From Acidimicrobiia bacterium (GTDB lineage: Bacteria > Actinomycetota > Acidimicrobiia > Acidimicrobiales > JANYDT01): DNA of 27,479 nt. The position numbers and the translations under genes were made by a program. Of the stretch, positions 20 through 23,230 are shown piece after piece; position 1 is the first letter of the stretch; the number at the start of each line of letters is the position of its first letter. The notes below the pieces were generated by a model, which saw only the letters and a program-made list of their open reading frames with translations, did no database searches and was not told where the DNA came from. Location of the stretch: assembly GCA_031431255.1 (NCBI GenBank), contig JANPDB010000823.1, positions 1 to 27,479 of the forward strand. The letters run 5' to 3'.

Positions 20-304
20 TCAGGCCTTCAGCAGACGTTGGATGGCTTTGGTCGCTTCCGAGATCTTGACGGCACCCTCGGGGCCGCTCGTGGCGACGGC
101 GCTGGCGACGCAGTGGTGGAGGTGTTCGTCGAGCAGGTTCACGGCCACGCTCTGCAGCGCTTTGCTGACCGAGGCCACCTGGGTGAGTACGTCGATGCAG
201 TAGATGTCTTCGTCGACCATCCGCTGCAGGCCGCGTACCTGGCCTTCGATGCGCCTGAGGCGGGCGAGGTGGTCGGCCTTGTTGGCTGCGTAGCCAGTTG
301 TCAT
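20..304 (-). CDS. csoR: Copper-sensing transcriptional repressor, CsoR/RcnR family (94 aa)
   Basis: Starts MTTGYAANKADHLARLRRIEGQVRGLQRMVDEDIYCIDVLTQ; contains the RLRRIEGQVRG family signature and the Cu(I) ligand set Cys (YCID) plus His/Cys (HLHHC). ATG at 304 is preceded by AAGGAG (complement of 313-318). The 75-codon upstream extension in the ORF track overlaps copA and is discarded. Confidence 0.95.
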   Translation of the reverse strand: MTTGYAANKADHLARLRRIEGQVRGLQRMVDEDIYCIDVLTQVASVSKALQSVAVNLLDEHLHHCVASAVATSGPEGAVKISEATKAIQRLLKA

Positions 305-316
305 CGCGTTGTCTCC

Positions 317-345
317 TTGACAGACGTGGGATACCCCCCTAGGGT
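317..345 (+). promoter_or_regulatory. Housekeeping-sigma promoter for copA: TTGACA-N17-TAGGGT
   Basis: Perfect TTGACA at 317-322, 17-nt spacer, TAGGGT (TANNNT) at 340-345. AAGGAG at 368-373 precedes the GTG at 381. Confidence 0.8.
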
Positions 346-347
346 AT
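331..347. promoter_or_regulatory. CsoR-type operator ATACCC-CCCTA-GGGTAT
   Basis: 6-5-6 inverted repeat with TAC/GTA flanks and C/G tracts, the known architecture of Streptomyces/Bacillus CsoR operators. It lies between csoR and copA and overlaps both predicted -10 boxes. Confidence 0.85.
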
Positions 348-369
348 ATTACAGGAAGTTCAAACGCAA
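341..369 (-). promoter_or_regulatory. Putative csoR promoter: TTGCGT-N17-TACCCT
   Basis: On the minus strand TTGCGT (369-364), a 17-nt spacer and TACCCT (346-341, TANNNT), pointing toward the csoR SD at 313-318. Confidence 0.6.
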
Positions 370-380
370 GGAGTGTCGCC

Positions 381-2696
381 GTGGCGGCCATCGCATCACC
401 GGGAAACGACAGCATTGCATCGAGCACGGAAACGGTTCGTCTTGACATCACCGGGATGACGTGCGCGTCCTGCGCCGCTCGGATCGAGAAGCGGCTCAAC
501 AAGCTCGAGGGTGTCGAAGCCACGGTCAACTACGCGACCGAGCAAGCCACCGTCAGGGTGCCCATGGGTTCGGTCACGACCGAGCAACTGGTGCATGCCG
601 TGGAGGCGATCGGCTATCAAGCCGCACCGGTCGTCACGACGCCGGCCGTCGCAGTCGCAACGAGTTCGGATGGGTCCCAACGCGGCGGCTCGCCGGGATC
701 GGCGAAAGACATCGACGCGGAGCGTCACGTGGCCGAGCTGCGTCAGCGGCTGCTGGTGTCAGCGTCGTTGGCAGTGCCGGTCGCAGTGATGTCGATGGTC
801 CCGGCCGCGCAGTTCGACAACTGGCAATGGCTTGCTCTCACACTGGCGTCTCCGGTGGTGGTGTGGGGCGGGTGGCCGTTCCATCGTGCGGCGTGGATGA
901 ACGCTCGCCACCGCGCCACGACGATGGACACGCTGATTTCCGTCGGCACGCTCTCCGCCTATGTCTGGTCGCTGTACGCACTGTTCTTCGGTCATGCCGG
1001 CATGGTGGGCATGAAGATGGGCTTCGAGCTGACGCTCCGCCGCGACAGTGCCGCGGGTCATCTCTATCTCGAGGTCGCATCCGCGGTGATCGTGTTCCTG
1101 CTCGCCGGTCGCTACTTCGAGAGCAAGGCCAAGCGGCAGGCGGGTGCTGCATTGCGAGCGCTGCTCACGCTGGGTGCAAAGGAGGCGACCGTCGTCGACG
1201 CCAATGGCCTCGAAACAACGGTGTCCATCGACGCGCTGGTCGTCGGGTCACGTTTCGTGGTTCGGCCCGGCGAGAAGATCGCGACCGATGGCGTGGTCGA
1301 ATCCGGCTCCTCCGCCGTCGATGCGTCACTGCTGACGGGGGAGAGCGTCCCGGTCGAGGTCCGGCCCGGCGATCCCGTCACCGGTGCCACGGTGAATGTG
1401 GGCGGACGCCTGGTCGTCCGGGCAACGAGGGTCGGCTCGGACACCGCTCTCGCCCAGATGGCACGGCTCGTCGAAGAGGCGCAGACCGGGAAAGCTCCCG
1501 TGCAGCGACTGGCGGACCGGGTGTCGGCGGTGTTCGTCCCGGTCGTGATCGGCCTCGCCGCGTTGACGTTGGCGTACTGGCTGGTGCGTGGCGAAGGCGG
1601 GCAGGCGGCGTTCACTGCCGCCGTAAGCGTGCTTATTATTGCCTGCCCCTGTGCGCTCGGGCTCGCTACGCCTACTGCGTTGTTGGTTGGCACCGGCCGC
1701 GGCGCGCAGATGGGCATCGTGATCAAGGGGCCGGAGATCCTGGAATCCACACGGCGGGTCGACACCATCGTGATGGACAAGACCGGCACCGTCACCACCG
1801 GCCGGATGTCGCTCGTCGACGTGATTCCCGCTCCCGGATTCGATGTTGACGAGGTCCTTGGACTCGTCGGCGCGGCAGAGCACGCCTCGGAGCACCCGAT
1901 TGCCAAGGCGATTGCACTGGCCGCAACCGAACGGCTCGGTGCGTTGCCGCCGGTCGAGTCGTTCGCCAACCACGAAGGTCTCGGTGTGCAGGGCGTCGTC
2001 GCCGGCCGGGCCATTGTGGCCGGTCGCCCGCGACTCCTCGCCGACTGGTCCGTCGTGATCCCCGACGTCCTCGTCTCCGCCCAACGTGAAGCCGAAGGTG
2101 CCGGACGCACGGCGATCTTGGCGGCGATCGACGGAAGGGCTGCTGCGCTCTTTACGGTGGCCGACACGGCGAAGCCGACGAGTGCCGAGGCCGTAGCGCA
2201 GTTGAAGGCGTTGGGGCTGCGGCCGATCCTGCTCACGGGTGACAACGAGACGGTCGCCCGAACGGTGGCCAAGGCGGTCGGGATCGATGAAGTGATTGCC
2301 GAGGTGCTTCCGGCCGACAAGGTGGCGCGGATCAAGGAGCTCCAGGCGCAAGGCCGGATCGTGGCCATGGTGGGGGACGGCGTCAACGATGCTGCGGCCC
2401 TCGCCCAGGCCGACCTCGGACTGGCCATGGGCACCGGCAGTGATGCTGCCATCGAGGCCGCCGACCTCACGTTGGTCCGCGGTGATCTTCGTGCTGCCGC
2501 CGATGCCATCCGGCTCTCGCGACGCACGCTCGCCACGATCAAGGCGAACCTGTTCTGGGCCTTCGCGTACAACGTTGCCGCCATCCCGCTTGCGGCGTTG
2601 GGTTATCTCAACCCGCTGATAGCCGGCGCAGCGATGGCCTTCTCCAGCGTCTTCGTCGTCTCCAACAGCCTGCGCCTGCGCCGCTTCGGCCGATAA
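381..2696 (+). CDS. copA: Cu(I)-translocating P1B-1 ATPase with one N-terminal HMA domain (771 aa)
   Basis: GMTCASC HMA motif, TGES actuator motif, [18 protein letters not shown] phosphorylation site, SEHP, GDGVNDA, and YN plus AMAFSS in the last helices (Cu+ site). SD AAGGAG upstream; divergent from csoR. Confidence 0.96.
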
Positions 2697-8294: not shown

Positions 8295-8980
8295 ACTCGA
8301 CCAACCAGAGCCACGGCGCCAAACGTAGGAGTGCCTCCCTCTTCACCGCGTTACTCCTCGCGAGCGGCGGGACGCTCGTCTCCTGCGGTTCCAAGTCCGA
8401 ACCAACAGCGAAGGAGGCTCCCTCGACGACCGCGGGATCCAGCACCGCGAACGTGGCAAACACGTCCGTTACAACGGACCCGACTACCGCCCCCCGGCCG
8501 GCTGACTCGAGCACTCTCACGACCGTCCGCACCGGGGGGCCGGTTCTTCCAGTGGCCGATAACCCGATAAGCAACGCCTCCACCGTTCAAGCGCTGAAGA
8601 TCGTCTCCGTGCTCGTCGAGAACAACGTCGACAGCTCAGGCAAAGCCGCCCCCGACCACCTCGAGATTGCGCTCTCAAACACCGGGACTACGAAGCTCAC
8701 CGCGTTCGAAACCTTCTATACGTTCACTGACACGGCCACCGGCGTCACCGAGAACTACTACGCCAAGCTGCCCGCCGATTTCACTATTGCCCCTGACGGA
8801 TCACGCACGGCGCACTTTGACAATACTGGCGCTGCCGATCATTTCCCGGTCAACCAGTTCAGCCTCTATTACACCGACACCAACGCGCTCGATGTCAGCG
8901 TCATCGTCAGCGCGAACGACTCCGCTCTGCAGACTGCCAACGTTCAGAAGGATGCCGGTGGGCCCGAGACCGCCGACTGA
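8291..8980 (+). CDS. Lipoprotein of unknown function (229 aa): Thr/Ser/Pro-rich linker plus probable beta-sandwich domain
   Basis: ATG overlaps the permease 2 stop (ATGA). Basic N-region, hydrophobic core and LVS-C32 lipobox, low-complexity linker, then a beta-rich domain with three spaced His (DHLE, AHFD, DHFP). Confidence 0.8.
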   Translation: MNSTNQSHGAKRRSASLFTALLLASGGTLVSCGSKSEPTAKEAPSTTAGSSTANVANTSVTTDPTTAPRPADSSTLTTVRTGGPVLPVADNPISNASTVQALKIVSVLVENNVDSSGKAAPDHLEIALSNTGTTKLTAFETFYTFTDTATGVTENYYAKLPADFTIAPDGSRTAHFDNTGAADHFPVNQFSLYYTDTNALDVSVIVSANDSALQTANVQKDAGGPETAD

Positions 8981-9041: not shown

Positions 9042-10403
9042 TCAGCCCAGGGGCAGTCGAACGACGAAACGTGCGCCTTCGGTACTCGGTTCGATTCGGA
9101 CCGTCCCGGAGTGCGAGTCAACGATTTCGCGCACGATCGACAATCCCAGTCCTGACCCGCCAGAATGCCGGCTTCTGGAATCGTCGAGCCGTGCGAAGCG
9201 GTCAAAGACGCGTTCACGGTCGGCGGGTTCGATGCCTGGGCCGTCATCTTGGACTGCAAACATCGCGACTCCTTCCTCTTTCCGAAGTTCCACCAGCACC
9301 CGAGATGTTGCATAGCGCGACGCGTTCTCGAGGAGGTTGCGGGCGACACGGGCGAGTTGATCAGCGTCTCCCCTCACCTCGACAGGAGCGACGGCGTTCA
9401 GGTCGATCCGCACATTCGACCGTGGCTGCAGTCTCCGGGCTTCGGATCGCACGATGTCGTCGAGGTCTACGGCGGCGTACTGCGTCAGCTTCACACCGCT
9501 ATCGGATTTCGCGAGGAACAACAGATCAGAGATCAACCTCGTCATCCGACGGTTGTCGTCCACCAAAGAGACTGCGACTCCTTCCCACTGGACAGATGTT
9601 GGGTGCGCGATCGCCACCTCCAAATCGGCCAGGCTGGCCGCCAATGGGCTCTGAAGCTCGTGCGACGCATCTGCGACGAACCGGCGTTGACGTTCCGATG
9701 AATCCTGGAGACGGCCGAGCATGAGGTTCATACTTCGTGCTAGCCGTCCGATCTCGTCGTCGACAGGTGGTTCGGGGATCCGACGGGAAAGGTCTCCGCC
9801 TCCGATCTCTGACACTTTTCGTTGTAGAACGTCGACCGGGCGCAGCGCCGCCCCGACGAAGAACCAACTCACTGCCGCCACGATCAAGAGAAGGAGCGGG
9901 AACGAGATCTCTAAGATCTTCTTGACCGATGAGACGTTCTCGTTCACCCCGTCCAAGCTGAGAGCTACATATACCCCAATCGGCCCGGTTGGCGTCTGGG
10001 CACCGAAGGCCACAAGGTGAAACGGGTCGTCCTTCTGATCCCCGGTAATGGGCAGATCCGTCCGTGATTCCGACAGGAAATCGCCCAGGACCGGCCGTAG
10101 TGTTGAAATCCGCGAGCCGGGGATGACTTGCGCGCTGGCGGCGACGCTTTCACCTTTGCCGTTCACTACTTGGATCACGGCTCCCTTTTCGCCCGAGTCC
10201 GGAAGAGCCAGGGGCAGCTCGGTCTTCTGCGTAAGCAGTGCGACTTCCTCCGCCCGTGTTCTTGCCGAGTTGGAGACGTTGTTCTGCAGGGCCCGATGCA
10301 TGAGCGCCAAGAACAGAAGAGCAGTCACCAAGAGCGCCACTGCGACGACAATCGTGGCTGCCGATGCCATCTTCATTCGGATCGTCGCTGGCTTCATCCT
10401 CAC
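9042..10403 (-). CDS. Membrane sensor histidine kinase (2 TM, HAMP, HisKA, HATPase_c; 453 aa)
   Basis: ALRPV/DDEIGRLA HAMP motifs, H-box ADASHELQSPL, N-box NLLENA, G1 VQDDGPGI, F-box VFDRF, G2 GSGLGLSIV. Confidence 0.95.
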   Translation of the reverse strand: MRMKPATIRMKMASAATIVVAVALLVTALLFLALMHRALQNNVSNSARTRAEEVALLTQKTELPLALPDSGEKGAVIQVVNGKGESVAASAQVIPGSRISTLRPVLGDFLSESRTDLPITGDQKDDPFHLVAFGAQTPTGPIGVYVALSLDGVNENVSSVKKILEISFPLLLLIVAAVSWFFVGAALRPVDVLQRKVSEIGGGDLSRRIPEPPVDDEIGRLARSMNLMLGRLQDSSERQRRFVADASHELQSPLAASLADLEVAIAHPTSVQWEGVAVSLVDDNRRMTRLISDLLFLAKSDSGVKLTQYAAVDLDDIVRSEARRLQPRSNVRIDLNAVAPVEVRGDADQLARVARNLLENASRYATSRVLVELRKEEGVAMFAVQDDGPGIEPADRERVFDRFARLDDSRSRHSGGSGLGLSIVREIVDSHSGTVRIEPSTEGARFVVRLPLG

Positions 10404-10409
10404 TGGTGG

Positions 10410-11087
10410 TCACCCGCCATCGGGGTCGAGGCGGTAGCCAACGAGACGCAGTGTCTGGATGCTCGAGCGCGAAAACGGAATGTCAATCTTCTTGCGAAGG
10501 TACCCAACGTAGACCTCGACGATGTTCAGGTCCATGTCGTACGAGTCGGCCCAAACATGCTCCAGAATTTCCGTCTTCGAAAGCACATCGCCGGGGTGCA
10601 TCATGAAGAACTCCAGTAGAGCAAACTGGCGCGGCGTGAGTTCTACCTCAACATCGCCCCTCCAACAGCGGTGCCGGGCCGGATCGAGGCGAAGATCTGC
10701 GACACTCAGGATTGTTGGGCGCACTCGGCTGGTGCGCCGGATCAATGCGCGGAGATGAGCAACAAGAACGACATACGAGAACGGTTTCGTGAGAAAGTCA
10801 TCAGCCCCGGTATCCAGTGCTTCGGCGTGGTCGTGTTCACCGTGCTTCGCCGTAAGCATCAATATTGGCGTCCAGATTCCCGCTTCACGCAGGTCAGCAC
10901 ACACCTGGTAGCCATTGCGTTTCGGCAACATGATGTCGAGGATGATTGCGTCGTACTCGTTCTCCTCCGCGAGTCGCAGACCTTCTTCGCCATCGGAGGC
11001 GGTGTCGACCACGAAGCCCTCACGCACCAGGCCGCGTTTCATCGCAGCGGCAAGGCGCTCCTCGTCATCGACCAGCAAGAGCCGCAT
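10410..11087 (-). CDS. OmpR/PhoB-family response regulator (225 aa)
   Basis: MRLLLVDDE, LDIMLP phospho-acceptor, LTKPF, and winged-helix C-terminus (NIVEVYVGYLRKKID, TLRLVGY). It lies 6 nt upstream of the kinase. Confidence 0.96.
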   Translation of the reverse strand: MRLLLVDDEERLAAAMKRGLVREGFVVDTASDGEEGLRLAEENEYDAIILDIMLPKRNGYQVCADLREAGIWTPILMLTAKHGEHDHAEALDTGADDFLTKPFSYVVLVAHLRALIRRTSRVRPTILSVADLRLDPARHRCWRGDVEVELTPRQFALLEFFMMHPGDVLSKTEILEHVWADSYDMDLNIVEVYVGYLRKKIDIPFSRSSIQTLRLVGYRLDPDGG

Positions 11088-11191: not shown

Positions 11192-12160
11192 TCACGCTCG
11201 TTGCACCGACGGATCGGCCGTCGAATACACGAGCGCCCGCTTCTCGAGCTCAAGTGCCCCCTTCGACGCCAAATCAAGCTTCTCAGGCGAGAGTTTCTCG
11301 GTGCGCACCATCAGGAGAGTTTCCTTCGACTCATCGGTCCCGTCCCATCCGACGCGAACCACCCCGACGCCCGGCGCGTAATACTTCAGCTGTATCGCGC
11401 TTGTCTCCTCTTCGTTGTATTCCTCCGTAAGGAGCACCCCTTTGTAGGTGCCGGTCGGAACGGTCGTCTCCTCGGTCATTGACCGCACGCGCGCCCGGTC
11501 GTTCCAGAAATACGGTGCTGGAGCGAAGCCTTCCGACCAGTCCGGCGCATTGGTCTTGGGATCGGCCTTCATCATGATTCCCGCCTTGGCATCTGCTGGA
11601 TGGCCGACGAACCACGTGCGACCCGCAGTGTATTCGCCCCCGTCCCACAACTCGCTGTACTGGCCCAAATGCCAGACATTACCCATCTTGTCCTGGGCAA
11701 AGAAGGTCAGTTCATCCTCTTCCAGGTCCCCCTCAGTGAAATCGCTTTCCCAGATGACGACGGTATTGACCCCATTGATCACCTTCGTCAGGTTCGTGAC
11801 GGTGAACGTGACCCGGTGTCCAAGAGTCTTTCCGTCCTCAAACGTCGAGCCATCATACTCATGTCGAGTGCCCGGGACCAACGGAAAGTATTTGTTGTCA
11901 ATATTGATCGAATTCTCGTCGAAGTTCGCGACCTGAAAGTCCTCTCGAGTGAACTTGCTCGGTACGACAACGGGCCGACTGCTAGCCGGGTTCTTGACCG
12001 CATCATCGGTCGTCTCTGCTGCCACGGTAGCGGCATCTACCGTCGTGTCGGAAGACGAGGACGAGCATCCAGTCCCGAAGAAAGCCAGAGCGACAACACC
12101 ACTCAGCAAAGTCAGAGCCTTCCCTCGATGACGAGCGGGCCGAGATCTGCGAACATTCAT
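11192..12160 (-). CDS. Acidic lipoprotein of unknown function (322 aa)
   Basis: ATG at 12160 with SD AGGAGT; Arg-rich N-region, hydrophobic core, GTG-C32 lipobox. Mature part has YFPLVPG, FFAQDKMGNVW, AGIMM.A.P, TVPTG and KYYAPGVG, which I recall from a widespread uncharacterised beta-rich secreted family. The ORF-track extension to 12754 overlaps the RND gene and is discarded. Confidence 0.85.
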   Translation of the reverse strand: MNVRRSRPARHRGKALTLLSGVVALAFFGTGCSSSSSDTTVDAATVAAETTDDAVKNPASSRPVVVPSKFTREDFQVANFDENSINIDNKYFPLVPGTRHEYDGSTFEDGKTLGHRVTFTVTNLTKVINGVNTVVIWESDFTEGDLEEDELTFFAQDKMGNVWHLGQYSELWDGGEYTAGRTWFVGHPADAKAGIMMKADPKTNAPDWSEGFAPAPYFWNDRARVRSMTEETTVPTGTYKGVLLTEEYNEEETSAIQLKYYAPGVGVVRVGWDGTDESKETLLMVRTEKLSPEKLDLASKGALELEKRALVYSTADPSVQRA

Positions 12161-12206
12161 TGGGACTCCTTCGACGAAGTTGGTTGGTGTCGGCGACGTC
12201 GTAGAT

Positions 12207-12236
12207 ATGCTATTTGATTCAAGTTGAAAGTCGAAA
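12207..12236 (-). promoter_or_regulatory. Possible internal promoter for the lipoprotein gene: TTTCGA-N18-TAGCAT, with TTCAA-N-TTGAA inverted repeat in the spacer
   Basis: AT-rich patch in the 104-bp gap. Minus-strand TAGCAT (12212-12207) fits TANNNT; the -35 match is weak; 5-1-5 inverted repeat at 12218-12228. Confidence 0.35.
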
Positions 12237-12264
12237 ACCATCGTCGAGACTGGCCTTCTGTCGT

Positions 12265-15200
12265 TCACGACGGGACCACGGCGATACGGGCCAGTCTCGC
12301 TCGCTCGGCCTTGGACTTGCCAAGGTGTAGGTACATCGGTGGAACGACGAAGAGATTCAAAAGCGTCGAGGTGAAGAGGCCACCGAGAATGACCGATGCC
12401 ATCGGAAACTCGATTTCTTGACCGGAGATGTTGCCTCGCACCAGCAGCGGCACCAGCGCGAGCCCGGTTGCGAGCATCGTCATGAGGATCGGTGCCAGGC
12501 GCTCGGTGGCACCTTTCAGGACGAGATCGGGACCAAACGGAACCCGCTCCTCCTTCTCCAGATGCTGGAAGTGCGTGATTTCCATGATGCCGTTTCTCGC
12601 GGTCAAACCGACGACGGTGAAGAAGCCTACGAACGACCCGATCGAGAGGACGCCGCCGCTCAGGTAGGCGCCCAGTACCCCACCGACGAGAGAAATGGGA
12701 AGCGTGATGAGGTGTAGGGCGACGTCGCGCCAATTTCGGAACACGGCGAGGCATAGCGCGACGATTCCTGCGAATGCGAGTGCAGCAAAGGCGAGAAGCC
12801 GCGTCTGGGCCGCTTGCCGTTCCCGGTACTCACCAAGAACCTGTGCAGTGTGTTCGAGCGGCAGTTTGATTTGGGCAACCTTCGCTTCCAGGTCGCGCGC
12901 GACCGCGCCGAGATCACGTCCATCGACTTCGGCGGAAATGTCAAGACGACGGAACCCTCCTTCGTGGCTGATGGCGTTGGGCGTGGGACGAATGCTCACC
13001 TTGGCGACGTCACCGAGTCGGACCTTCGCTCCGTTCGGGCCATTGACGAGTATTTCGCTGACGTCGTGGATGCTGTTGCGAGCTTCGGGCACGCTCCATA
13101 CCTCGACGTCGTAGGTCTTCCCATCACGGAATACGTCGCCCACCTCTTCGCTCGCCATGATGGTGGCGGCAGCACGCCTCACGTCTCCTGGCTTGACCCC
13201 CGCCTGCTTCGCCTTCAGGAGATCAACATCCACCTCAATCTGCGGCACCAGCAACTGCAACTCGACGTGCTCGTTCTTGACGCCCTCGATCTCGCCGAAG
13301 GCATCTTTGACTTCTTCGGCCTTCGTTCGCAGAACATCGAGATCCGGCCCGATCAGGCGCACGACGAGAGGGTCGCTCTGTCCGGTGATGGTCTCGCTTA
13401 TGCGTTCGGCGAGATAGGTCTCGACGTTGGTGAACATACCCGGATAGCTCGCCACCACTTCTTCGATCTTGGCGAGGGTCTTGTCGTAGTCGACCTTCGG
13501 GTCGATGCTGATCCAGTTCTCGCCGAAGTCAACGCCGGCGATTTCCTCGCCAAGGAACGCCTGCCCGATGTGAGAGCCAAAGTTACGGACTCCCGGAATG
13601 GCCCGAAGTTCGTTGCTGCCTTTGATCACGATCCGTCGTTCCTCGGTGATCGAGGTGCCAGGTTTCGAGATCCAGTGCATCAAGAAGTCCTTCTCCTTGA
13701 AGGTCGGGAACAACGATTGGCCAAGGGTAGGAACCAGGGCGATGCCGCCGATGGCCACCGCTGTCACGGCCGCGTAGATCGGGATCGGGCGCGAAAGGAG
13801 TGGGGTGAGCAGACGTCGGTAGCCGCGACGCAAGAAGACGGCTAGCGGAGATTCGTGATGGTCCCACATCGGAGACGCGGTGCCGCTTCGGGAATAGAGG
13901 ATCATGCTCAACGCCGGGGTGCTGATGAGCGCAACCAGCAGCGACACGGTGACGGCCAGCGCGTACGTGATTGCCAGAGGACGGAAGAACGACCCCGTCA
14001 GGCTCTTCAGGAAGAAGATTGGAACGAGCGACATGATCTCGATGAATGACGCGTAGACCACCGCGCCACGTACCTCGACCGAAGCGGCCAGAATGACCGC
14101 AGCCGTCGATCTAGGGCTGCCGTTGGCATTGTTCTCACGTAGGCGACGCACGATATTCTCGACGTCAACGATTGCGTCATCGACGATGGCGCCGAGCGCA
14201 ATGACCAAGCCCGCCAATACCATCGTGTTGATCGTGGCGCCCCGGGCGTAGAGCACCAGCCCGGCGGCGGTCAACGACAACGGCATTGTGATGACGCTTA
14301 TCAACGCCGAGCGCCAATCGTAGAGAAACAATCCGAGCACGATCAGAACGAGCAGCGCGCCGAGAATCAATGACGAAGTGAGGTGATTGATCGCTTCATC
14401 GACGAAACTCGCCGGACGGAAAATCGTCGTGTCAATGTCGATTCCCGGAAGTCCGGGAGCCATCTCAGCCAGCGCCTTCTCGGCCCCTTCCGTCACCTCC
14501 AGAGTGTTGCCCCAGGGGAACTTCTCAACGACAAGCATCAACCCGGTTCCGCCGTTGATAACTGCGTCTCCGGCGAGAGGCGGCGAACCAGTGACGACTT
14601 TGGCGACGTCGCCGATCCGCAGGATCTTGTCGCCGCGTTGGACGAGCGCGACTTGCGCGAGATCCTCCGGCGTAACGATTGACAACTTGTGGCGCACACC
14701 CAGCCGCTGATTCGGCGTATCGATGAACCCACCTGTGCCGATGAAACCGCCACCGGCATACTTGAGAATTCCCGCATCGAGAGCTTCAGCGGTGGCTTCC
14801 ATCACCTGGTCGAGTGACACGTTCTCGCTGGTCAGCTTGTCCGGTTCCACCTGCACCTGGTACGCCTTGATTCGTTCACCCCAGATGGCGACGTTTGCCA
14901 CTCCGGGTACTCGGAGCAACCTGGCCCGGATCTTCCAATAGGCCGTCATCGACATGTCTTCAAGGGAAATAGTTTTCGAAGACAGTCCGATCTTCATCAC
15001 CCGACTGGTTGCCGAGAGCGGCTGCATCATCACTGGGGGAGCGGCCCAGGTCGGTAGAATGTTTTGTATCGTTGCGAGCTTCTCCTGAACGAGTTGTCGG
15101 GCGTTGAGCTGATCGGTTCCTAGCTTGAAGGTCAGCTCCACGTATGACAACTGGGAAGCACTCTTGGACCTCATGATTTGAAGACCCGGAACGCCGCTGA

Positions 15201-15417
15201 GCGCCTGCTCCATCGGGATCGTTACGAGTGCTTCAACCTCGGAAGCGGCAAGCCCCAGACAGGCGGTTTGGATCTGTACGCGTGGCGGTGCAAATTCCGG
15301 AAAGACATCGACCGGCATCTTCTGCAGTGCGTTGAAACCAAACAGCATCATTCCAGCGGAGAAGGCAACTACAAGGTATCGAAATCGCAGACTATTCTTG
15401 ATTATCCATCGCAACAT
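12265..15417 (-). CDS. Heavy-metal efflux RND transporter, CzcA/CusA family, intact proton-relay motifs (1050 aa; RND-A)
   Basis: PVDVFPEFAPPRVQIQT N-terminal motif of HME/NrsA-like RNDs; TM4 GAIVDDAIVDVENI (D413, D414, D418, E420); TM10 TARNGIM; TM11 ERLAPILMT; TM12 GGLFTSTLLNLFVVP. Confidence 0.93.
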   Translation of the reverse strand: MLRWIIKNSLRFRYLVVAFSAGMMLFGFNALQKMPVDVFPEFAPPRVQIQTACLGLAASEVEALVTIPMEQALSGVPGLQIMRSKSASQLSYVELTFKLGTDQLNARQLVQEKLATIQNILPTWAAPPVMMQPLSATSRVMKIGLSSKTISLEDMSMTAYWKIRARLLRVPGVANVAIWGERIKAYQVQVEPDKLTSENVSLDQVMEATAEALDAGILKYAGGGFIGTGGFIDTPNQRLGVRHKLSIVTPEDLAQVALVQRGDKILRIGDVAKVVTGSPPLAGDAVINGGTGLMLVVEKFPWGNTLEVTEGAEKALAEMAPGLPGIDIDTTIFRPASFVDEAINHLTSSLILGALLVLIVLGLFLYDWRSALISVITMPLSLTAAGLVLYARGATINTMVLAGLVIALGAIVDDAIVDVENIVRRLRENNANGSPRSTAAVILAASVEVRGAVVYASFIEIMSLVPIFFLKSLTGSFFRPLAITYALAVTVSLLVALISTPALSMILYSRSGTASPMWDHHESPLAVFLRRGYRRLLTPLLSRPIPIYAAVTAVAIGGIALVPTLGQSLFPTFKEKDFLMHWISKPGTSITEERRIVIKGSNELRAIPGVRNFGSHIGQAFLGEEIAGVDFGENWISIDPKVDYDKTLAKIEEVVASYPGMFTNVETYLAERISETITGQSDPLVVRLIGPDLDVLRTKAEEVKDAFGEIEGVKNEHVELQLLVPQIEVDVDLLKAKQAGVKPGDVRRAAATIMASEEVGDVFRDGKTYDVEVWSVPEARNSIHDVSEILVNGPNGAKVRLGDVAKVSIRPTPNAISHEGGFRRLDISAEVDGRDLGAVARDLEAKVAQIKLPLEHTAQVLGEYRERQAAQTRLLAFAALAFAGIVALCLAVFRNWRDVALHLITLPISLVGGVLGAYLSGGVLSIGSFVGFFTVVGLTARNGIMEITHFQHLEKEERVPFGPDLVLKGATERLAPILMTMLATGLALVPLLVRGNISGQEIEFPMASVILGGLFTSTLLNLFVVPPMYLHLGKSKAERARLARIAVVPS

Positions 15418-15435
15418 GACAAGGGCTTCGTTCGG

Positions 15436-15900
15436 CTATTCGTCGCCGACGCCGATTTCGGCGCCGTAGAGCTGAGTTGCGCCGAGTGTCACGACCTTCG
15501 TACCTTCATCCGGACCTTCAGTGAGCGTTGCTACGTCGCCGACGATCTTCTCGACCGTGATCGACTTTCGCTCGAAGGAAAGACCTTTGACGTTCACGTA
15601 CGCCCATGTCTTGCCATCGGGGTCATAGAGCACAGCACCGTACGGAATCTCCAGGCCGGAGGGCCCCATCCTCGCTTCCTCCGTCTTCAGATCAATCCGG
15701 TCCGCGGCCTCCTTGGTCAGGGTCACACGCTGGAGTTGCGAACCTTGAATGTCTTCGACCTCGGCTGCACCATTTGTCGCTTCATCCTCACCCGCAGCGC
15801 TGCGGCAGCCCGATAGCGAGAGCAACCCGACTATCAGGAGACGTTGGAATAGCTTGTTTCGACGGATGAACTTCCCCGTTGTTTTCCGCGTCGTTTCCAT
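15436..15900 (-). CDS. Small lipoprotein resembling only the membrane-proximal domain of a CzcB/CusB-type adaptor (154 aa)
   Basis: ATG at 15900 with SD AAGGA; LSG-C32 lipobox. LQRVTLTKEAADRIDLKT resembles the adaptor N-terminal segment and is joined directly to IPYGAVLYDPDGKTWAYV..SFERKSITV..GDVATLTEGPDEGTKVVTLGATQL, which resembles the adaptor C-terminal segment. Confidence 0.75.
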   Translation of the reverse strand: METTRKTTGKFIRRNKLFQRLLIVGLLSLSGCRSAAGEDEATNGAAEVEDIQGSQLQRVTLTKEAADRIDLKTEEARMGPSGLEIPYGAVLYDPDGKTWAYVNVKGLSFERKSITVEKIVGDVATLTEGPDEGTKVVTLGATQLYGAEIGVGDE

Positions 15901-16025
15901 GATCGTCCGTTCCTTCGCTATCGTCGCTGTCTGCACGGGTAGTGGTTCTGTTCGCTTTGCACTCTCATGTCCTGATCGAGCCAGCAGTTTCGGGTCCGCT
16001 GACGCGGTTCCCCCGTCGGTCCATT

Positions 16026-19000
16026 TCACGAACGGACCAGATCGGGTCGAGTCGTTTCGGACGCGTTGATCAACTCGTCGATGTCCCAGGCAGGCAGGAT
16101 CTCCTTCGGTCCGAAATGTACGTACAACGGGGGTAGGACGAACAGCTGCGTCATCACGGTCGTAACCAGACCACCAAGGATTGCGACGACCATCGGGAAG
16201 AGCAGTTCTTGGCCGGCAATGTTGTTGAAGATAAGAACCGCAGCAAACGCGAGGGCGGTCAGAATACTTGCGTTCACTATCGGACCGACTCGCGATCGAG
16301 CCCCGAGAAGCATCAACTCTTCGTCGAGGGGGCGGCCGTCGTTGCGGAGAGCGAGGTATCCCTCGACGGTTCGCAGAGTGAACCGCGTGGCCAAGGCAAA
16401 CACCGCGGCCAACGCCGAGACGGTAGCGATGGACATGGGCTCTCCGAAGACGCGTGCAGCCACGGGAGCGCCGGTGACCGACACGATGATTGCGAGAAGC
16501 GTTATGGCGCCGAGACGCCAGCTTCGGAATGCGGCCTGCAGTACGAGGAAAACGCCGAGAATTGCCGCGATGGCAAAGGCCATCACCCGTCGTTGCGACG
16601 ATTGCTCGTCGTTGTAGTCCGATAGCACGGTCGTATGAAACTCCGGGGGCATGGCGATCCGTGCGAGGGCTTTTCGAAGATCCGCGGTGACCTCTCCCAC
16701 GTTTCGACTCTTCACATTCGCCGTCACGTCGATGTAGCGAGAGATGTCGTCATGCTCGATAATCGGCGGAGTTGATCTCACCGTGACGTTGGCGACGTCG
16801 CCGAGCCTGATTACTTTGCCGGCCGGAGTGTTGATCAACAGGTCCTGGACGCTCGAGACGCTCGTCCGGATCTCAGGGCGTCCCCAGACGGTGACTTCGA
16901 AGATCTTCTGATCCTGGAAGAGGTTTCCAACCCGAAGGCCCGAGAGGAGGGTTTCCGATGCCCGTCGGACGTCGCCGGGTTTGATGGCGAGTGCTTGAGC
17001 CTTCAGCAGGTCCACGTCAACTTGAATCGTGGGTTCGGCCAGTTGGGACGATATGCGTGCCTGGGAAACGCCCTTTATCCCGGACAGTGAACCCTTGATC
17101 TCGTCAGCCTTCTTGCGAAGCAGGCCGAAGTCCTGTCCATAGAGCCGAACGGAGACCTCGTCCCTACTGCGTCCGAGCGACTTACGAAGCCGTTCCGCAG
17201 AGTATGTGGTCACACGATGGCTCAACCCGGGGTAGCCGCCGACGATTCGACGGATTGCTCCGACCGTCTTCGAGTAGTTGGAAGCTTTCACGCTGATGAA
17301 CATTTCTGCGGCGTCACTCCCGACCGGTCGGTCTCCGCTCACTGCCTGACCAATCTGCGAACCGACCATTCGAACGCCTGGGACCGCTCGCAGCTCTGTG
17401 GTGGCCCGGGCGATGATCCGCGTCATCTCAGGCAGCGACGTGCCGTAGGGAGCCTGCCACCTGATCATCAGGTTGGTGTCTTTGAACTTGGGGAGCAGTA
17501 CCTTGTCCATCGATGGCACGACGGCTATTCCAGCGACAAGAAGAGCCGCTCCCGTTGCGAGTGCCGGAATCGCAGACTTCCCGAAAACCGCAAGCGCTTT
17601 CGTGTAGGTGGGCCCCAACGAGCGGGTCACGAGCGAAGTGTCGTGCTCGCTCCTGTCATTCAGTAGCTTGCGAAGTGCCGGCGTCAAAGTCAGAGCAACG
17701 ACAATCGAAGCAGCCATGGTGACCAAACACGAGATCGCAACAGGCGGAAAGAACTCGTCGCCTGAGACTCCGTTCAGAAAGTAAATGGGCAGCATCGCGA
17801 CCGCGAATATCACGGTCGACCACACCGCCATTTTCGCGGCGCCGTGTGCACCGTTCAGCAGGGCGCGGGACGTGGTCCCAACGGCACTTTCGCTCGGCGA
17901 CGAAGGCGTCGGCGACTCAGCGTCGTCGCTCAATGATTGCTCGATCACCGCACCGACAGCAACCGCCAACCCGGCAATCACGACAACGTTGAAAGCGACG
18001 TCGAGCAGATGCAAGATGGTCGCGGCCGCGCCGAAGGAGAACGCCACCGATACCAGCGCGATCAGCGCCTTCCTCCATCGCAGCAGAAGCAGAACCAAAC
18101 CAGCTGCGACCAGCACTACGCCGACCACAACCGATCGCAGGAGATTTGAATTGGATCGGTTGAGGTAGTCCGTTGGACGGAAGACGGTTGAGTCCATTTT
18201 GAGCCCGACGAGTCCGGGGCGCAACGTCTTCAACACTTCTTCTACGCTGCGCGCGACCTTCGCTGTGTCAGCATTTGGAAGCTTCTCGACCACGATCAGA
18301 AATTGCCCCTCGTCCCCGACGACGGCATCACCAATCAGTGGTTGATGATCCTCGACCACAGTCGCCACATCACCAAGCGTCAACGGAACCCCGACGGTGT
18401 CGTCAATGGCGATCGTGGCCAGATCCTTCGGCTCGATGACCGGAAGATTGTGTTGAATGCCCAGACGCTGGTTGGCCGTGTCGATGAACCCGCCGGTCCC
18501 CGGGGTTGAAGCTTCGAGAAACGTCAGAGGCGATACCCAAAGAGCATTTCCCGTCGAGCTCACCACCTGCTCGATCGAGACCCCCTTCTCACGTAGCTTC
18601 GCGGGGTCAACCAGGACCTGCAACTGACGTTCGCGCTGACCCCAGATCGCCACGTTTGATACTCCGGACACGGCGAGCAATCGGGGTCGGATTGTGAACC
18701 GTGCGAGAACACCGATCTGTATCGGCGTAAGTGTCTTCGACGACAGAGCAATCATCGCGGTACGACTTGTTGACGCCTGAGGCTGGAGCATTTGCGGAGG
18801 GCGCGACACATTCGGCAGGCCTGCCGCTTGGCTGATCCTCTCCTGCACTACCTGGCGTGCTCGGTACAGAGGCGTTCCCTCGTCGAAGATCATTTCGATG
18901 TACGACAGGCCAGGCACGGATTTGGAGTGGATGGAGTCGAGCCATGGGACGCCGTCGAGGAGATCCTGCTCTATGGGAACGGTGACAAGTTGTTCGACCT

Positions 19001-19175
19001 CTTCGGCGGACAGGCCGAGCGCATCGGTCTGAACGACCACGCGGGGAGGATCGAACTCCGGCAACGTCTCTGTCCGGGCGTTCTGCAGCTGAATGACTCC
19101 AAAGACCATCAGCAAAACCGCAAACGCGATTACTGCCCGATTGGCCTTCAGACTCCACGCAATGATCCGTCTCAT
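16026..19175 (-). CDS. CzcA/CusA-family RND paralog with degenerate transport motifs (1049 aa; RND-B)
   Basis: Collinear with RND-A ([43 protein letters not shown]), but TM4 reads [13 protein letters not shown]10 ATRFTL and TM11 SRVGPIVNA. Full-length uninterrupted frame; SD-like GGAAGG upstream. Confidence 0.9.
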
Positions 19176-19678: not shown

Positions 19679-19748
19679 GCTGGTTCCGGAGCGGACGTGC
19701 CGTGAACATACCCTTTCAATCGGAGGCTGTCAAATAGTTTCGAATATT

Positions 19749-19833: not shown

Positions 19834-19890
19834 ATGGCAGGTAAACCAGAAACGCAGTGAAAATAGAGTCGTGTGAAACGAGGAATGAAC

Positions 19891-20898
19891 ATGAAACTTG
19901 TCGGTAGCCGCGTACGCACTCGTTACGGAGCCGCGAGTGTGCCTGTGATGTCAGTGCTTCTCGTAGCTGTCGCGTCGCTGACGGCCTGTAGCGGTAAGTC
20001 GGACAACAGCGGAACTCAGTCGGCTGCGGTGGATTCGCCCCTCGGCCTTGACGAGGCCGCGTCCGCGCTGATGCAGACGCGCGTCGAGGAATTGGTCAAG
20101 TCGTGCATGAAGCGTGCCGGGTTCGAGTACGTACCGGTTGACCCGAATGCCACGAAAGCGGCGATCACCGGTACGAGTGGGCTCACCGATGACGAATTCC
20201 GACGCCAGTTCGGCTACGGGATCAGCACTGTTTTCGAAAAGATCGTCGAGATCAGCCAGTCGTCGAAATCCGTGGATCCCAACGTGACGTACCGAAGTGG
20301 TCTAGATCCCGCCGGACAGCAAGCGTTCGACGTTGCGTTGACCGGCGGGAAGGCCGACGTCTCCGTCTCGGGCGCCGTGGAAGCGGCGAAGACCGGTGAC
20401 CTCGGTGGTCTAGGGGGATGTGTCGAAGAAGCCACAACAGCGGTGTTCGGAGGGGCCAACGTCGTGTCGGCATTGGCGAAGATCGAGGAACTCGATTCCC
20501 GGGCTGAGGCCGACGAACGCCTGGTCAAAGCCCGGGCTGATTGGTCGAATTGCATGCGGAAGCAGGGATTTGAGTATTCCGAGCCGAACGCTGTCGACGT
20601 GGGAATCACCGAGAAGCTTGCTGCATTGGTCGGCCCGGCTGCGGCGAAAGCACTGGGAGAGGAGGGGACATTCAGCCCACTGGTCTTCGGAACCAACGCC
20701 CTTCCCGCCTACGACAAGGCTGCCCTGGTGCAGTTGCAGGCAGAGGAGATAGCCACAGCCCAAGCCGACCTTCAGTGCGAGGAGAAGTACGTCGTGGACG
20801 TGGAGGACAAGGTGAAGGCCGAGTACGTGAAGAAGTTCGCACAGGAGAACGCCGTGCTCCTGTCCAAAGCGCAGTCCGAATTGGAGAAACGTAAGTGA
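19891..20898 (+). CDS. Lipoprotein with repeated CMxxxGFEY motif, four Cys in the mature part (335 aa)
   Basis: SD GAGGA at 19880-19884, ATG 19891, LTA-C33 lipobox. CMKRAGFEY (20104-20130) and CMRKQGFEY (20550-20576). Resembles the lipoproteins I recall leading actinobacterial adaptor-ABC operons. Confidence 0.85.
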   Translation: MKLVGSRVRTRYGAASVPVMSVLLVAVASLTACSGKSDNSGTQSAAVDSPLGLDEAASALMQTRVEELVKSCMKRAGFEYVPVDPNATKAAITGTSGLTDDEFRRQFGYGISTVFEKIVEISQSSKSVDPNVTYRSGLDPAGQQAFDVALTGGKADVSVSGAVEAAKTGDLGGLGGCVEEATTAVFGGANVVSALAKIEELDSRAEADERLVKARADWSNCMRKQGFEYSEPNAVDVGITEKLAALVGPAAAKALGEEGTFSPLVFGTNALPAYDKAALVQLQAEEIATAQADLQCEEKYVVDVEDKVKAEYVKKFAQENAVLLSKAQSELEKRK

Positions 20899-23222
20899 AG
20901 CGCTCGGTCGTCGCGGGTGGGATGGCGGTCGTTGTCGGTGTGTCCACGGGAGCCGGGTGGCTCGCAGCATCCCGCGTGAAATCGCCCGCCAAGTTGGCGG
21001 CCGAGGCTGCCCCTCCGGAAGCGTCGTTGATCACGTATCCGGTTGAAAAGCGCGTCCTGAGTTCGGATCTCATCATTCGAGGCACGATGCGTTATAGCGA
21101 TCCGATCGTGGTGGTGCTCGCGCCGTCGGCGCTTCGTCCCCCGCCCGTGCTGGTGAGTCAGGCACCGGTGAAGGGAGCGACGCTGAATGAGGGCGACGTC
21201 GCCATGGTCGTTTCGGGGCGACCCGTGTTTGTCGTGAAGGGAGCTACCCCAGGGTTTCGTGATCTCGGACCCGGTGCGGTCGGCGCCGACGTGCGGCAAC
21301 TGGAGGACTTTCTTCAGCGTCAGGGTTTTGACCCCGGAACCGTGGACGATCACTACGACGGAGCAACTTCCGCCGCAGTGGCGAGGTGGTACAGCAAGGC
21401 CGGCTACCAGGCGTTGGGACCAAACGACCAACAGCGAGCGACACTCCGAGTCGCCGAGTCCGCACTCAGCGTCGCTACCGATCGCCTGCTTCAGGCCAAA
21501 CAGACAGAACTCCTCAACCGCTCGGGAGCGAAGCCTGTCGAAATCATCGACGCGAAGGCGACAGCAGACACATCGAAAGCAACGGCGGCGGCGGCACGAA
21601 TCGCGGCACAGCGAGACGCAGACCGGAGCCAGGCGGAGCTTGCCCTCAAAGAGGCGGATCTCCTCAACAAAGGTGCTGATCTCGCGACCAAACGGGCCGC
21701 CGTCGAAGTGGCGGGAATCGTGCTCGACGACGCTCGTCGGCGCGATGGGCTCGTCGCATCGGGTGTGAACGTGGCGACCGGTGTCACCGTGACACCTCAG
21801 CAACTCGGGTTGTTGCAGGATGGCGTCAACGAGGCCGTCATTGCGGTGGGAGCCGCCGAAGCCGACTTGTCTGCTTCAGAAGCGGTTGCGAACAGCGTAC
21901 GAGTCGCCGGTGAAGCATCGGTGGCGGAGGCGCGCACCAAGCTGAACGGGGCATCCACCTACGTTCTCGATGGACTCACACAGCAAGAACAACTCAACGT
22001 GATTGCCGCAGCCAGAAATGCCCAGGCGGCGCTCGCGCTCGCCGAGGCGGCGGCGGCAAAGGACAACGCCGTCGCGGCGGCGGACGTAGCGACCAAGAGG
22101 GCAGTTCTCGCTACCGCGAAATCGAGGGCAACTCAGGCTCAACAACGGATAGAAAACGCGAACGCCGGGGTGGACCCGGCGACCGGTCTGCCGCTTTCAA
22201 CTGCAGGTGATCGCGCTAACAGTCAATTCGCACTGAAGCAGGCCGAACTCATCCTTCGTCAGGCGGAGATTGCCCTTTCCCCAGCAGAGGCTCTTCTGGC
22301 TGCGGCACAAAATGACGTCGAAACGCTACGACGCGTGAACACACTCACGGCGACGGCGAATCAACAAGCCATTGCAGAGTCCGACATGCGTGTCGAGTCG
22401 GCGCAAGCTCGACTACAGGCCCTGGGTCGTCCCGGTGCCGGTTCTGCGAATCTCAGCGAAGCGGTCAGAGTCGCAACGGCCGAGGTGGCCCGCTTGCAAT
22501 CCGACCTGGAAAGGTACGCGGGCGCTGTCGGGGTTCAGGTACCGGCGAACGAACTCGTCTTCTTTCCCAGCCTTCCACTGCGCATCGACGATACGAAGAT
22601 CAAGCGTGGTGATCCGGCGACGGCCGAAGTCATGACCGTGAGCGGAACCCGACTGGCTGTTGACGCAGCGCTGTTGACAACCGAAGCTACGCTCACGCGA
22701 ATTGGTGCAGCCGCCACCATCGAAGCGCCGGAGTATGCCTTCAGCAGCAAGGGTGCGATCACCTTTCTCGCCGACAAACCAGGCCTGCGTGGAACGGATG
22801 GACAGCACATCGCCATCGAGGTAACTCCCGAAGACAGCTCGACGCAATTGGTCGGCGCATCCGTGCGGATCACGATACCGACCAAGACGACCAATGGGGA
22901 GGCATTGATCGTTCCGGTGAGCGCGTTGTCGGTTCGTGCCACAGGGAGTACTCAACTTCAGATTCAAGATTCGCCCGGAGTCGTCCGGACGGTCGTTGTG
23001 ACCGCCGGGCTGTCAGCCCAAGGCTTCGTGGAGATCGTTCCTGTGAGCGGTTCGGTAAAGGCGGGCGATCGGGTCGTGATCGGCGCTGACGGGCCGACGA
23101 CTACTGACCCACTCGCAAAGGATGCGGCGCCGCTTGCCACTGCACCATTGGGCTCGGTCGAGCCCAACGCGGCAACGTCCGTCGAGGTCGGAGCTACTTC
23201 GACAGTTCCAACGAGCCCATAA
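20895..23222 (+). CDS. Peptidoglycan-binding membrane-fusion/adaptor protein with very long Ala-rich coiled coil (775 aa)
   Basis: N-terminal TM anchor; VEKRVLSSDLIIRG adaptor start; PG_binding_1-like segment FRDLGPGAVGADVRQLEDFLQRQGF..DHYDGAT..AV; helical region about aa 178-540; C-terminal LIVPVSAL..V.AGLSAQGFVEI..GDRVVIG. GTGA-coupled to the lipoprotein gene. Confidence 0.88.
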   Translation: MKRSVVAGGMAVVVGVSTGAGWLAASRVKSPAKLAAEAAPPEASLITYPVEKRVLSSDLIIRGTMRYSDPIVVVLAPSALRPPPVLVSQAPVKGATLNEGDVAMVVSGRPVFVVKGATPGFRDLGPGAVGADVRQLEDFLQRQGFDPGTVDDHYDGATSAAVARWYSKAGYQALGPNDQQRATLRVAESALSVATDRLLQAKQTELLNRSGAKPVEIIDAKATADTSKATAAAARIAAQRDADRSQAELALKEADLLNKGADLATKRAAVEVAGIVLDDARRRDGLVASGVNVATGVTVTPQQLGLLQDGVNEAVIAVGAAEADLSASEAVANSVRVAGEASVAEARTKLNGASTYVLDGLTQQEQLNVIAAARNAQAALALAEAAAAKDNAVAAADVATKRAVLATAKSRATQAQQRIENANAGVDPATGLPLSTAGDRANSQFALKQAELILRQAEIALSPAEALLAAAQNDVETLRRVNTLTATANQQAIAESDMRVESAQARLQALGRPGAGSANLSEAVRVATAEVARLQSDLERYAGAVGVQVPANELVFFPSLPLRIDDTKIKRGDPATAEVMTVSGTRLAVDAALLTTEATLTRIGAAATIEAPEYAFSSKGAITFLADKPGLRGTDGQHIAIEVTPEDSSTQLVGASVRITIPTKTTNGEALIVPVSALSVRATGSTQLQIQDSPGVVRTVVVTAGLSAQGFVEIVPVSGSVKAGDRVVIGADGPTTTDPLAKDAAPLATAPLGSVEPNAATSVEVGATSTVPTSP
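21675..22187 (+). repeat. Intragenic protein-level duplication in the adaptor coiled coil (135-aa period)
   Basis: aa 261-296 (21675-21782) ADLATKRAAV...SGVNVATG and aa 396-431 (22080-22187) ADVATKRAVL...AGVDPATG align without gaps at 15/36 identities. Confidence 0.7.
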
Positions 23223-23230
23223 GAACAGCC

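Follow-up and report, generated by a model that had tools for sequence, protein, structure and literature searches.

How could an RND efflux pump work in a cell that shows no sign of an outer membrane? AcrB/CusA-type RND pumps are regarded as Gram-negative machines, with adaptors that are there to reach an outer-membrane duct. The question is raised by a stretch of 27,479 nucleotides from an Acidimicrobiia bacterium (assembly GCA_031431255.1, contig JANPDB010000823.1), referred to here in its full length as the window. As the initial annotation of this DNA had reported, the minus strand of the window carries four co-oriented genes, for an RND permease (RND-B), a small lipoprotein, a second RND permease (RND-A) and an acidic lipoprotein, followed by a two-component pair. 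The explanation that best accounts for the whole, to which we assign a probability of about 0.58, is a monoderm, channel-free RND system related to the heavy-metal efflux (HME) pumps, in which RND-A would be the exporter, RND-B its partner and the small lipoprotein, a stub adaptor, a clamp on the pump.

Conservation of the module

Both large proteins are full-length ACR_tran proteins, and their genes are the only ACR_tran genes of the assembly, which is 78% complete. Loci of the same kind were found in species-representative genomes with a profile of the small lipoprotein, which yielded 74 loci, mostly in Actinomycetota and Chloroflexota (Acidimicrobiia, Gaiellaceae, Solirubrobacterales, Nocardioidaceae, Chloroflexia, Limnocylindrales, Thermomicrobiales and Caldilineaceae), with a few in metagenome-assembled genomes (MAGs) labelled Gemmatimonadota, Planctomycetota, Verrucomicrobiota, Leptothrix or Methylobacter. 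Given that the order RND-small lipoprotein-RND is kept in nearly all of these loci from other genomes, and likewise in metagenome contigs, the layout is not a product of chance.

The remaining genes are less constant. Among the 42 loci with full 10-kb flanks, a homolog of the acidic lipoprotein (35-48% identical) adjoins the RND pair in 20, a related response regulator is present in 12 and a MacB-type ABC system in 15. On the counts for the lipoprotein and the regulator, the core of the module is the trio of RND, stub and RND, while the acidic lipoprotein and the two-component pair rank as accessories. Of 401 genomes sampled from the host phylum, 26 have the stub, and none of the same-order genomes among those listed does. 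A comparison with 1.84 billion cluster representatives gave 565 members of its family at E<=1e-30 and 1844 at E<=1e-10, mostly of 140-180 aa.

Full-text literature searches found no published description of the paired-RND/stub-adaptor layout. The RND and adaptor parts are known; the architecture and the decay series of its second subunit are new.

RND-A: proton relay and predicted metal site

Residues of both permeases were read from an alignment of 43 upstream (p1, RND-B-type) and 43 downstream (p2, RND-A-type) sequences, the window's two included, together with AcrB, CusA, MdtB and MdtC of E. coli K-12. The residue counts leave out loci L013, L019, L029, L041, L077, L078 and L080, from MFD-series MAGs (probably long-read), in which the RND genes are broken into many short frames. 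Since both paralogs are affected alike, these splits are most likely indel errors of assembly, not decay.

All 43 p2 sequences have Asp-Asp at AcrB positions 407/408 (D413 and D414 in RND-A), Arg at the K940 position, Arg at R971 and Thr at T978. The substrate path was compared with that of the zinc pump ZneA, whose proximal site consists of residues 136, 602, 610, 654 and 658 according to a table that also lists the motifs of transmembrane (TM) helix IV for the HME classes (PMC7060636, supplement 9). The corresponding residues of RND-A are R139, E625, E633, E671 and E675, of which four are acidic, in keeping with the ligands of an HME proximal site. These five residues, as well as E575 and H581, are invariant in the p2 set (43/43) and common to three single RNDs from diderms, described below. 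H581 stands at the position of CusA Met573, and E575 at that of CusA Glu567. In the main alignment AcrB, MdtB and MdtC are non-acidic at the four Glu positions, while a smaller re-alignment places a Glu of AcrB in the E675 column. The solved structures nearest to RND-A are those of ZneA (345 bits) and then CusA (291 bits). Given this carboxylate-rich site, four Glu and a His at the positions that bind Zn(II) in ZneA and Cu(I) in CusA, a metal cation, probably divalent, is the likeliest substrate as judged from the residues.

Several features of RND-A weigh against that assignment. An invariant Arg (R139) occupies the position of ZneA's fifth ligand. The distal site of ZneA is not kept, as the alignment places A72, N175 and L622 there (A72 and N175 in a second alignment too). 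TM helix IV reads ALG-x3-DDA-x3-VEN, and the tabulated motifs are DFG-x3-DGA-x3-VEN for HME1-3a and AVG-x3-DAA-x3-IEN for HME4; in that table RND-A fits only the tentative 'HME5?' row of NieA and the HAE-1 rows (PMC7060636, supplement 9). By its sequence, then, the DDA-VEN form of this helix is one shared with HAE-1 drug pumps.

RND-B: loss of the relay and role as a partner

The upstream paralogs vary at the same positions. RND-B and its closest relatives have Glu-Gln at AcrB 407/408 and Ala at 978, the next p1 relatives have Asp-Gly or Asp-Glu at 407/408, and in a p1 clade apart from these (Gemmatimonadota, Planctomycetota, Leptothrix) the pair is Tyr-Asp and the K940 position holds Cys or Tyr. 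Of the 43 p1 sequences, 30 retain Asp-Asp together with both basic residues, and the 13 non-canonical ones imply at least four changes of state on the tree. At the proximal-site positions RND-B has R138, R616, E624, E661 and K665, that is, two acidic residues of five and two charge reversals. Here too the p1 sequences form a gradient: 11 copies, mostly from Chloroflexia and Limnocylindrales, have all four acids as well as the relay, and the others have one to three acids. For the lineage of the window, these residues uphold the original proposal that RND-A is competent and RND-B degenerate.

Pairwise dN/dS values (nonsynonymous over synonymous substitution rates) were obtained among the window and its relatives, where dS is unsaturated. 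They are 0.03 for RND-A, 0.14-0.22 for the stub and 0.12-0.14 for RND-B, the last with dS up to 0.8. That RND-B might be a decaying pseudogene with no function is very improbable. Its lost relay and site residues, its altered TM4 segment and an evolution about four times faster than that of RND-A are what such decay would produce, yet the frame is open and full-length in all close relatives, the dN/dS has stayed low over the whole span of dS, and within the clade, identity in the docking and PN1 subdomains still reaches 87-89%.

The divergence is also unevenly spread along the protein. With approximate subdomain boundaries taken over from AcrB, the p1/p2 divergence ratio is 1.76 for TM2-6 and 2.04 for TM8-12, against 0.68 for DN, 0.95 for DC and 1.03 for PN1. 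Within the window's own clade, TM2-6 identity is 55% for RND-B and 91% for RND-A, while DN identity is 87% and 86%, respectively. A DN segment, GTGGFIDT-x-NQRLG, is conserved in both paralogs and missing from AcrB and CusA. In AcrB-type trimers, DN, DC and PN1 form the funnel and the central pore. Selection on RND-B thus appears to target the parts that build funnel and pore and not the proton engine, as expected of a partner subunit.

On this evolutionary evidence, we infer a mixed RND-A/RND-B trimer for this lineage. The proposal does not generalise beyond it, given that most p1 sequences keep the full relay and 11 the whole site. Two considerations count the other way. Elsewhere, p1 proteins with relay and site could form a pump of their own, and RND-B itself may not be fully dead, as it has Glu at the D407 position and both Arg.

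The first of these considerations leads to an alternative in which there is no heteromer, and two independent homotrimeric pumps that differ in substrate share the stub. The complete p1 copies would suit it, as would loci of Gaiellaceae in which RNDs and stubs appear to be stacked in modules (see below). We consider it unlikely, since RND-B lacks the Asp pair and two site ligands and is nevertheless held at a dN/dS of about 0.13, with drift in its membrane domain and constraint in its docking domain, since the relay was lost at least four times without loss of the gene, and since p1 always occurs with p2 in complete loci.

A stronger form of the partner reading may be entertained tentatively, at somewhat less than even odds. 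In it, RND-B would be an obligate, catalytically silent scaffold at the end of a decay series that runs from competent p1 proteins of Chloroflexia to relay-dead ones, arisen at least four times; the stub would be an allosteric activator that bridges to nothing; and the whole would be a monoderm RND architecture derived from a tripartite ancestor, given the rooting used.

The stub adaptor

The mature chain of the small lipoprotein has 123 residues and forms a single domain, whose AlphaFold model has a predicted local distance difference test score (pLDDT) above 90 in its core. A Foldseek search against the PDB gave weak E-values (best 5.8e-3), and the fold was settled by structural re-alignment: Z is 13.9 to CusB of the CusBA complex (96 residues, root-mean-square deviation 2.1, CusB chain 79..393) and 13.7 to ZneB, 8-10 to AcrA, MexA and BesA, and below 3.5 to unrelated folds. 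The match combines segments from both termini of the adaptors; jointly these make up the membrane-proximal domain, and no chain outside it remains for barrel, lipoyl or hairpin domains. At the level of sequence profiles the stub lies below the adaptor-family cut-offs (17.9 against 94.9 bits for TIGR01730, 21 against 319 for TIGR00999), with faint matches at the C-terminal end of the models. With the C-terminal 60-100 residues of adaptors from Sphingobium, Hymenobacter and Methylomonas it shares 35-50% identity.

Complex prediction was run for stub residues 33-154 with the extracytoplasmic head of RND-A (36-342 plus 568-872), RND-A being the only partner tried. The score was 0.80 in three runs, with 0.06 for the best control; the docking mark is reached by 51 of 78 solved complexes and by 2 of 108 mismatched pairs. 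The predicted contacts on RND-A lie in subdomains PC1 (583-603, 654-662), PC2 (717-725) and DC (778-784, 808-812). A caution against reading this as interaction is that the pass may mirror the model's memory of the solved CusBA complex; it attests likeness to that complex and does not prove binding. As modelled, the lipoprotein is the membrane-proximal domain, and that domain only, of a CusB/ZneB-type membrane-fusion protein, with predicted docking on RND-A, and its initial description as adaptor-like has become more specific: a true stub adaptor.

Some relatives of the stub are longer, at 240-290 aa (P0038, P0048, P0074, P0078, P0091 and others), and match it in two stretches separated by an insert of about 90-100 residues. 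These could be intermediate adaptors that retain one further domain. In loci L011, L017, L018 and L028, from Gaiellaceae and relatives, the module is extended to RND-stub-RND-stub-RND, in which the third permease belongs to the RND-A type (59-61% identity) and is preceded by a separate stub. This arrangement suggests that the stub pairs with the downstream-type RND.

Host and absence of an outer-membrane duct

The host assembly is an Acidimicrobiia MAG of 4.9 Mb in 989 contigs. Profile searches for OEP/TolC (PF02321), Omp85/BamA and LpxC found no match in it, whereas the same searches were positive in diderm control genomes. OEP was not found in four other carriers either, namely two records with complete-chromosome titles (Gaiellaceae and Solirubrobacterales) and two MAGs (Acidimicrobiales and Chloroflexia); the Leptothrix MAG, a positive case of the search, has about 10 OEP genes. 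With tblastn, no match to four outer-membrane factors (three TolC proteins and CusC) was obtained in the window or within 10 kb of any of 78 related loci, diderm-labelled ones included. These results support the proposal that the host is a monoderm and the pump independent of TolC.

It is very unlikely, on this evidence, that the host is a diderm that encodes a cognate outer-membrane factor and a full adaptor elsewhere. Room for such genes is left by the completeness of the assembly, and the carriers include a few MAGs with the labels Gemmatimonadota, Planctomycetota, Verrucomicrobiota or Leptothrix, the last rich in OEP genes. Against it stand the joint absence of OEP, Omp85 and LpxC from the host assembly, the Acidimicrobiia labels of the MAGs closest to the locus, the negative OEP searches in two chromosome-titled records and two further carriers, and the lack of a nearby outer-membrane factor even in diderm-labelled loci. 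Moreover, given known adaptor architecture, a single domain of 123 residues is too short to span to an outer-membrane channel.

Two points about the host material count against the favoured explanation as a whole. The genome is only 78% complete, and a search of sequencing runs found the operon in sediment DNA runs and in no RNA-seq run. DNA of the locus is present in freshwater-sediment metagenomes.

Origin of the two RNDs and family placement

Trees were built with FastTree and a quick IQ-TREE run, which agree on the topology that follows. The p1 proteins, RND-B among them, form one clade and the p2 proteins, with RND-A, another, each with support of 99-100, and the inner groupings of the two largely match. 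The two clades together are sister to single plasmid-borne RNDs of Methylomonas sp. DH-1, Hymenobacter radiodurans and Sphingobium yanoikuyae, which share 47-51% identity with RND-A; the next branch outside this group is E. coli CusA, and AcrB, MdtB and MdtC lie further out. Given the separate, well-supported clades with matching inner groupings, p1 and p2 would stem from one old duplication, after which the pair was inherited together, and from a lineage that is tripartite in diderms, given the rooting used. Operon linkage alone would also yield co-inheritance of p1 and p2, which tempers what the matching groupings say about a partnership.

The plasmid RNDs belong to operons of a response regulator, a kinase, TolC, an adaptor of 314-405 aa and one RND, and two of the three stand beside mer or ars genes. 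The Hymenobacter radiodurans operon (locus L085, 839-13400) lies among genes for a GT39 glycosyltransferase, an epimerase, a protein with the N-terminal domain of lipid-A-disaccharide synthase and an undecaprenyl-diphosphate phosphatase.

The initial annotation had filed the pump under HME. TIGR00914 (CusA/CzcA) is the best NCBIfam model for both RNDs, yet the scores of RND-A (533.5 bits) and RND-B (312.2 bits) fall short of its cut-off of 701.45, which counts against membership. In addition, the locus lacks the outer-membrane factor and full adaptor of a tripartite HME operon, and TM helix IV of RND-A departs from the motifs of HME1-4. In the trees, the RND clade falls on the side of CusA and apart from AcrB, MdtB and MdtC, at a support of 100; as HME is represented by CusA only, and long branches come together at the base, this link rests on limited sampling. 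The filing was therefore revised: the pair is tentatively placed, phylogenetically, as a clade sister to CusA.

Like MdtBC-type pumps, the locus has two tandem paralogous RND genes that arose by one duplication and are co-inherited. The trees place this pair far from MdtB and MdtC and outside HAE-1 clade B, the MdtBC clade into which all tandem RND repeats fell in a survey that excluded Gram-positive phyla (PMC10872679). MdtBC functions as a heterotrimer and is the named heterotrimeric case among HAE-1 pumps (review, PMC8277102).

The acidic lipoprotein and the nature of the substrate

The mature acidic lipoprotein has an isoelectric point of 4.6 and 48 Asp and Glu among its 291 residues. Its model (pLDDT 83) shows a long antiparallel sheet curled into an open barrel and then a C-terminal helix, the open-barrel fold of the half-barrel group (LolA/LppX-LprAFG/DUF3108). 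In the PDB, Foldseek places YmcC-like structures first (3fzx at 1.2e-6, 4fvs at 1.4e-5), followed by VioE, nitrobindin, DUF1849, RseB/MucB and LolA3, while its neighbours in the AlphaFold Database are uncharacterised, DUF3108, PepSY-fused or LppX_LprAFG entries. The only Pfam match, DUF3108_like, scores 18.2 bits against a cut-off of 27, and NCBIfam gives none. Invariant residues include five carboxylates and no cluster of His, Cys or Met, and no homolog was found in the three diderm plasmid loci. A role as a lipid carrier of the LppX/LprG type was considered and not adopted, the support for it being a rank-14 match in the AlphaFold Database.

The lipoprotein had initially been proposed to accept exported metal in place of a channel. 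The half-barrel fold, the lack of a His/Cys/Met cluster and the absence from about half of the loci do not favour this proposal, and with 20 of 42 loci the protein is an optional accessory.

These properties bear on the substrate of the whole system. In one alternative the architecture would be as described and the substrate not a metal; it could be an envelope lipid or an organic compound of cationic or amphiphilic character. The half-barrel lipoprotein would then accept hydrophobic ligands, as LprG or LppX do for mycobacterial transporters. The predicted fold, of the YmcC/LolA/RseB/VioE kind with the low-ranking LppX_LprAFG match, is of a class that usually binds hydrophobic ligands, and this, like the Hymenobacter setting, where the operon stands in a context of envelope modification (lipid-A and undecaprenyl genes) rather than in a metal island, detracts from a metal export function. 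The HAE-1-like TM4 motif and the MacB-type systems near 15 of 42 loci would also be at home in such a scheme. We regard it as rather doubtful, given the four invariant Glu and the His at ZneA/CusA metal-site positions, which in the main alignment are non-acidic in AcrB, MdtB and MdtC, given that the nearest solved pumps are ZneA and CusA and the nearest adaptors CusB and ZneB, and given that half of the loci, as well as the diderm operons, lack the lipoprotein. The metal reading has context on its side as well: the CusR-like regulator, a P1B ATPase with an HMA domain in the window, and the plasmid homologs beside mer or ars genes.

Regulation and neighbouring genes

The features of the locus are listed in Table 1. 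The products of the two-component pair score best with heavy-metal models, below the cut-offs in both cases (regulator, TIGR01387, 218 against 279 bits; kinase, TIGR01386 heavy-metal sensor, 214 against 293). The regulator is 43% identical to E. coli CusR and 31-41% to the regulators of the diderm operons; co-inheritance of the pair with the pump was rejected on this ground. Inspection of the kinase sensor domain by eye revealed no obvious metal motif. The downstream CusRS-like pair probably controls the operon. A consensus promoter scan gave 3 matches, which is not above the expectation from shuffled sequences (mean 2.4), and a terminator scan returned nothing meaningful within the operon.

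Table 1. Features of the RND locus in the window.
Feature	Coordinates	Strand	Basis
RND-B, upstream (p1-type) RND paralog, 1049 aa	16026..19175	-	Pfam ACR_tran, 470 bits
Stub adaptor (predicted), lipoprotein, 154 aa, lipobox Cys32	15436..15900	-	Pfam: no match
RND-A, downstream (p2-type) RND, 1050 aa	12265..15417	-	ACR_tran, 676 bits
Accessory acidic lipoprotein, 322 aa	11192..12160	-	Model fold YmcC/LolA-like
OmpR-family response regulator	10410..11087	-	Response_reg and Trans_reg_C
HAMP/HisKA/HATPase sensor histidine kinase	9042..10403	-	Pfam domains
Candidate sigma-70-like promoter match, 5' of RND-B	19705..19733	-	TTGACA-17-TATGTT, 10/12 consensus

Other genes of the window flank the operon on both sides. 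A P1B-type ATPase with an N-terminal HMA domain (381-2696, plus strand; E1-E2_ATPase 184 bits, HMA 53 bits) lies about 6 kb from the two-component pair and is a second metal-export gene of the window. Immediately downstream of the kinase gene and in the opposite orientation (8078-8980, plus strand), a frame encodes a Ser/Thr/Ala-rich lipoprotein of up to 300 aa with no Pfam match, whose likely start is an internal Met before the lipobox. Divergent from RND-B (19873-25233, plus strand) are genes for a 341-aa lipoprotein, a 775-aa PG_binding_1 protein, which is probably a MacA-like adaptor, an ABC ATPase and a MacB_PCD/FtsX permease. In L003, L005 and L007-L009 this MacB-type block keeps its synteny with the RND operon, and related blocks adjoin the RND pair in L030, L055, L064 and L068. 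Next to it, a second gene of the MacB/FtsX family (25280-27442, minus strand) encodes a 720-aa protein with two FtsX-type permease stretches.

Comparison with known systems

The closest counterparts are the plasmid operons of Methylomonas, Hymenobacter and Sphingobium, which are uncharacterised and bear generic annotation. Their RND has the same signature as RND-A (D413/D414, R139, E575, H581, E625, E633, E671 and E675), a two-component pair adjoins, and the C-terminal end of the adaptor resembles the stub. In contrast to the window, they have a single RND, a full adaptor and a TolC gene, and no half-barrel lipoprotein. The HME systems ZneCAB and CzcCBA (HME1-3) and CusCFBA (HME4) resemble the locus in providing its nearest solved pumps and adaptors, in acidic residues at four of the five ZneA proximal positions and in a CusR-like regulator. 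The window differs from them by the lack of an outer-membrane factor, the lack of hairpin, lipoyl and barrel domains in the adaptor, the two RND paralogs and the TM4 motif; the methionine triad of CusA is also missing from RND-A, which has H581, F631 and E675 instead.

MdtABC of E. coli, like MuxABC and SmeJK, has tandem paralogous permeases from one old duplication that are inherited together. MdtBC, a member of HAE-1 clade B, differs by its full adaptor and by relay residues that are kept in both subunits, and it needs TolC. For the stub, parallels are found in naturally reduced adaptors, namely the hairpin-less BesA of Borrelia (fold match Z 9.4) and the MacA-like adaptors of Gram-positive bacteria. 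BesA has a chain of 262-275 residues, against the membrane-proximal domain only in the stub; it retains lipoyl, barrel and membrane-proximal domains and works with an outer-membrane factor.

Proposed mechanism and significance

Returning to the monoderm, channel-free system proposed at the outset, RND-A would be the proton-driven exporter of a cation, probably a divalent metal, through its TM4/TM10/TM11 relay. RND-B would be a partner that pumps weakly or not at all, within a mixed trimer analogous to MdtB2C. The lipid-anchored stub would clamp RND-A on its PC1/PC2/DC face; instead of forming a bridge to a duct, it may stabilise the pump or activate it. From the funnel, the substrate would pass directly to the wall zone. 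Lineage-specific additions would be the half-barrel lipoprotein and the CusRS-like pair, the latter probably in control of the operon.

In this module, evolution would have reduced an adaptor to the domain that touches the pump, in cells without an outer membrane, which offers a natural system for the role of that domain in its own right. The paired permeases span the range from two competent subunits to one competent and one degenerate, and could make the division of labour within RND trimers tractable. Clusters of the stub family at 50% identity number in the hundreds in metagenomes from soil and sediment. Provided that a metal is what the pump exports, the module may be relevant to metal handling by abundant uncultured Actinomycetota and Chloroflexota.

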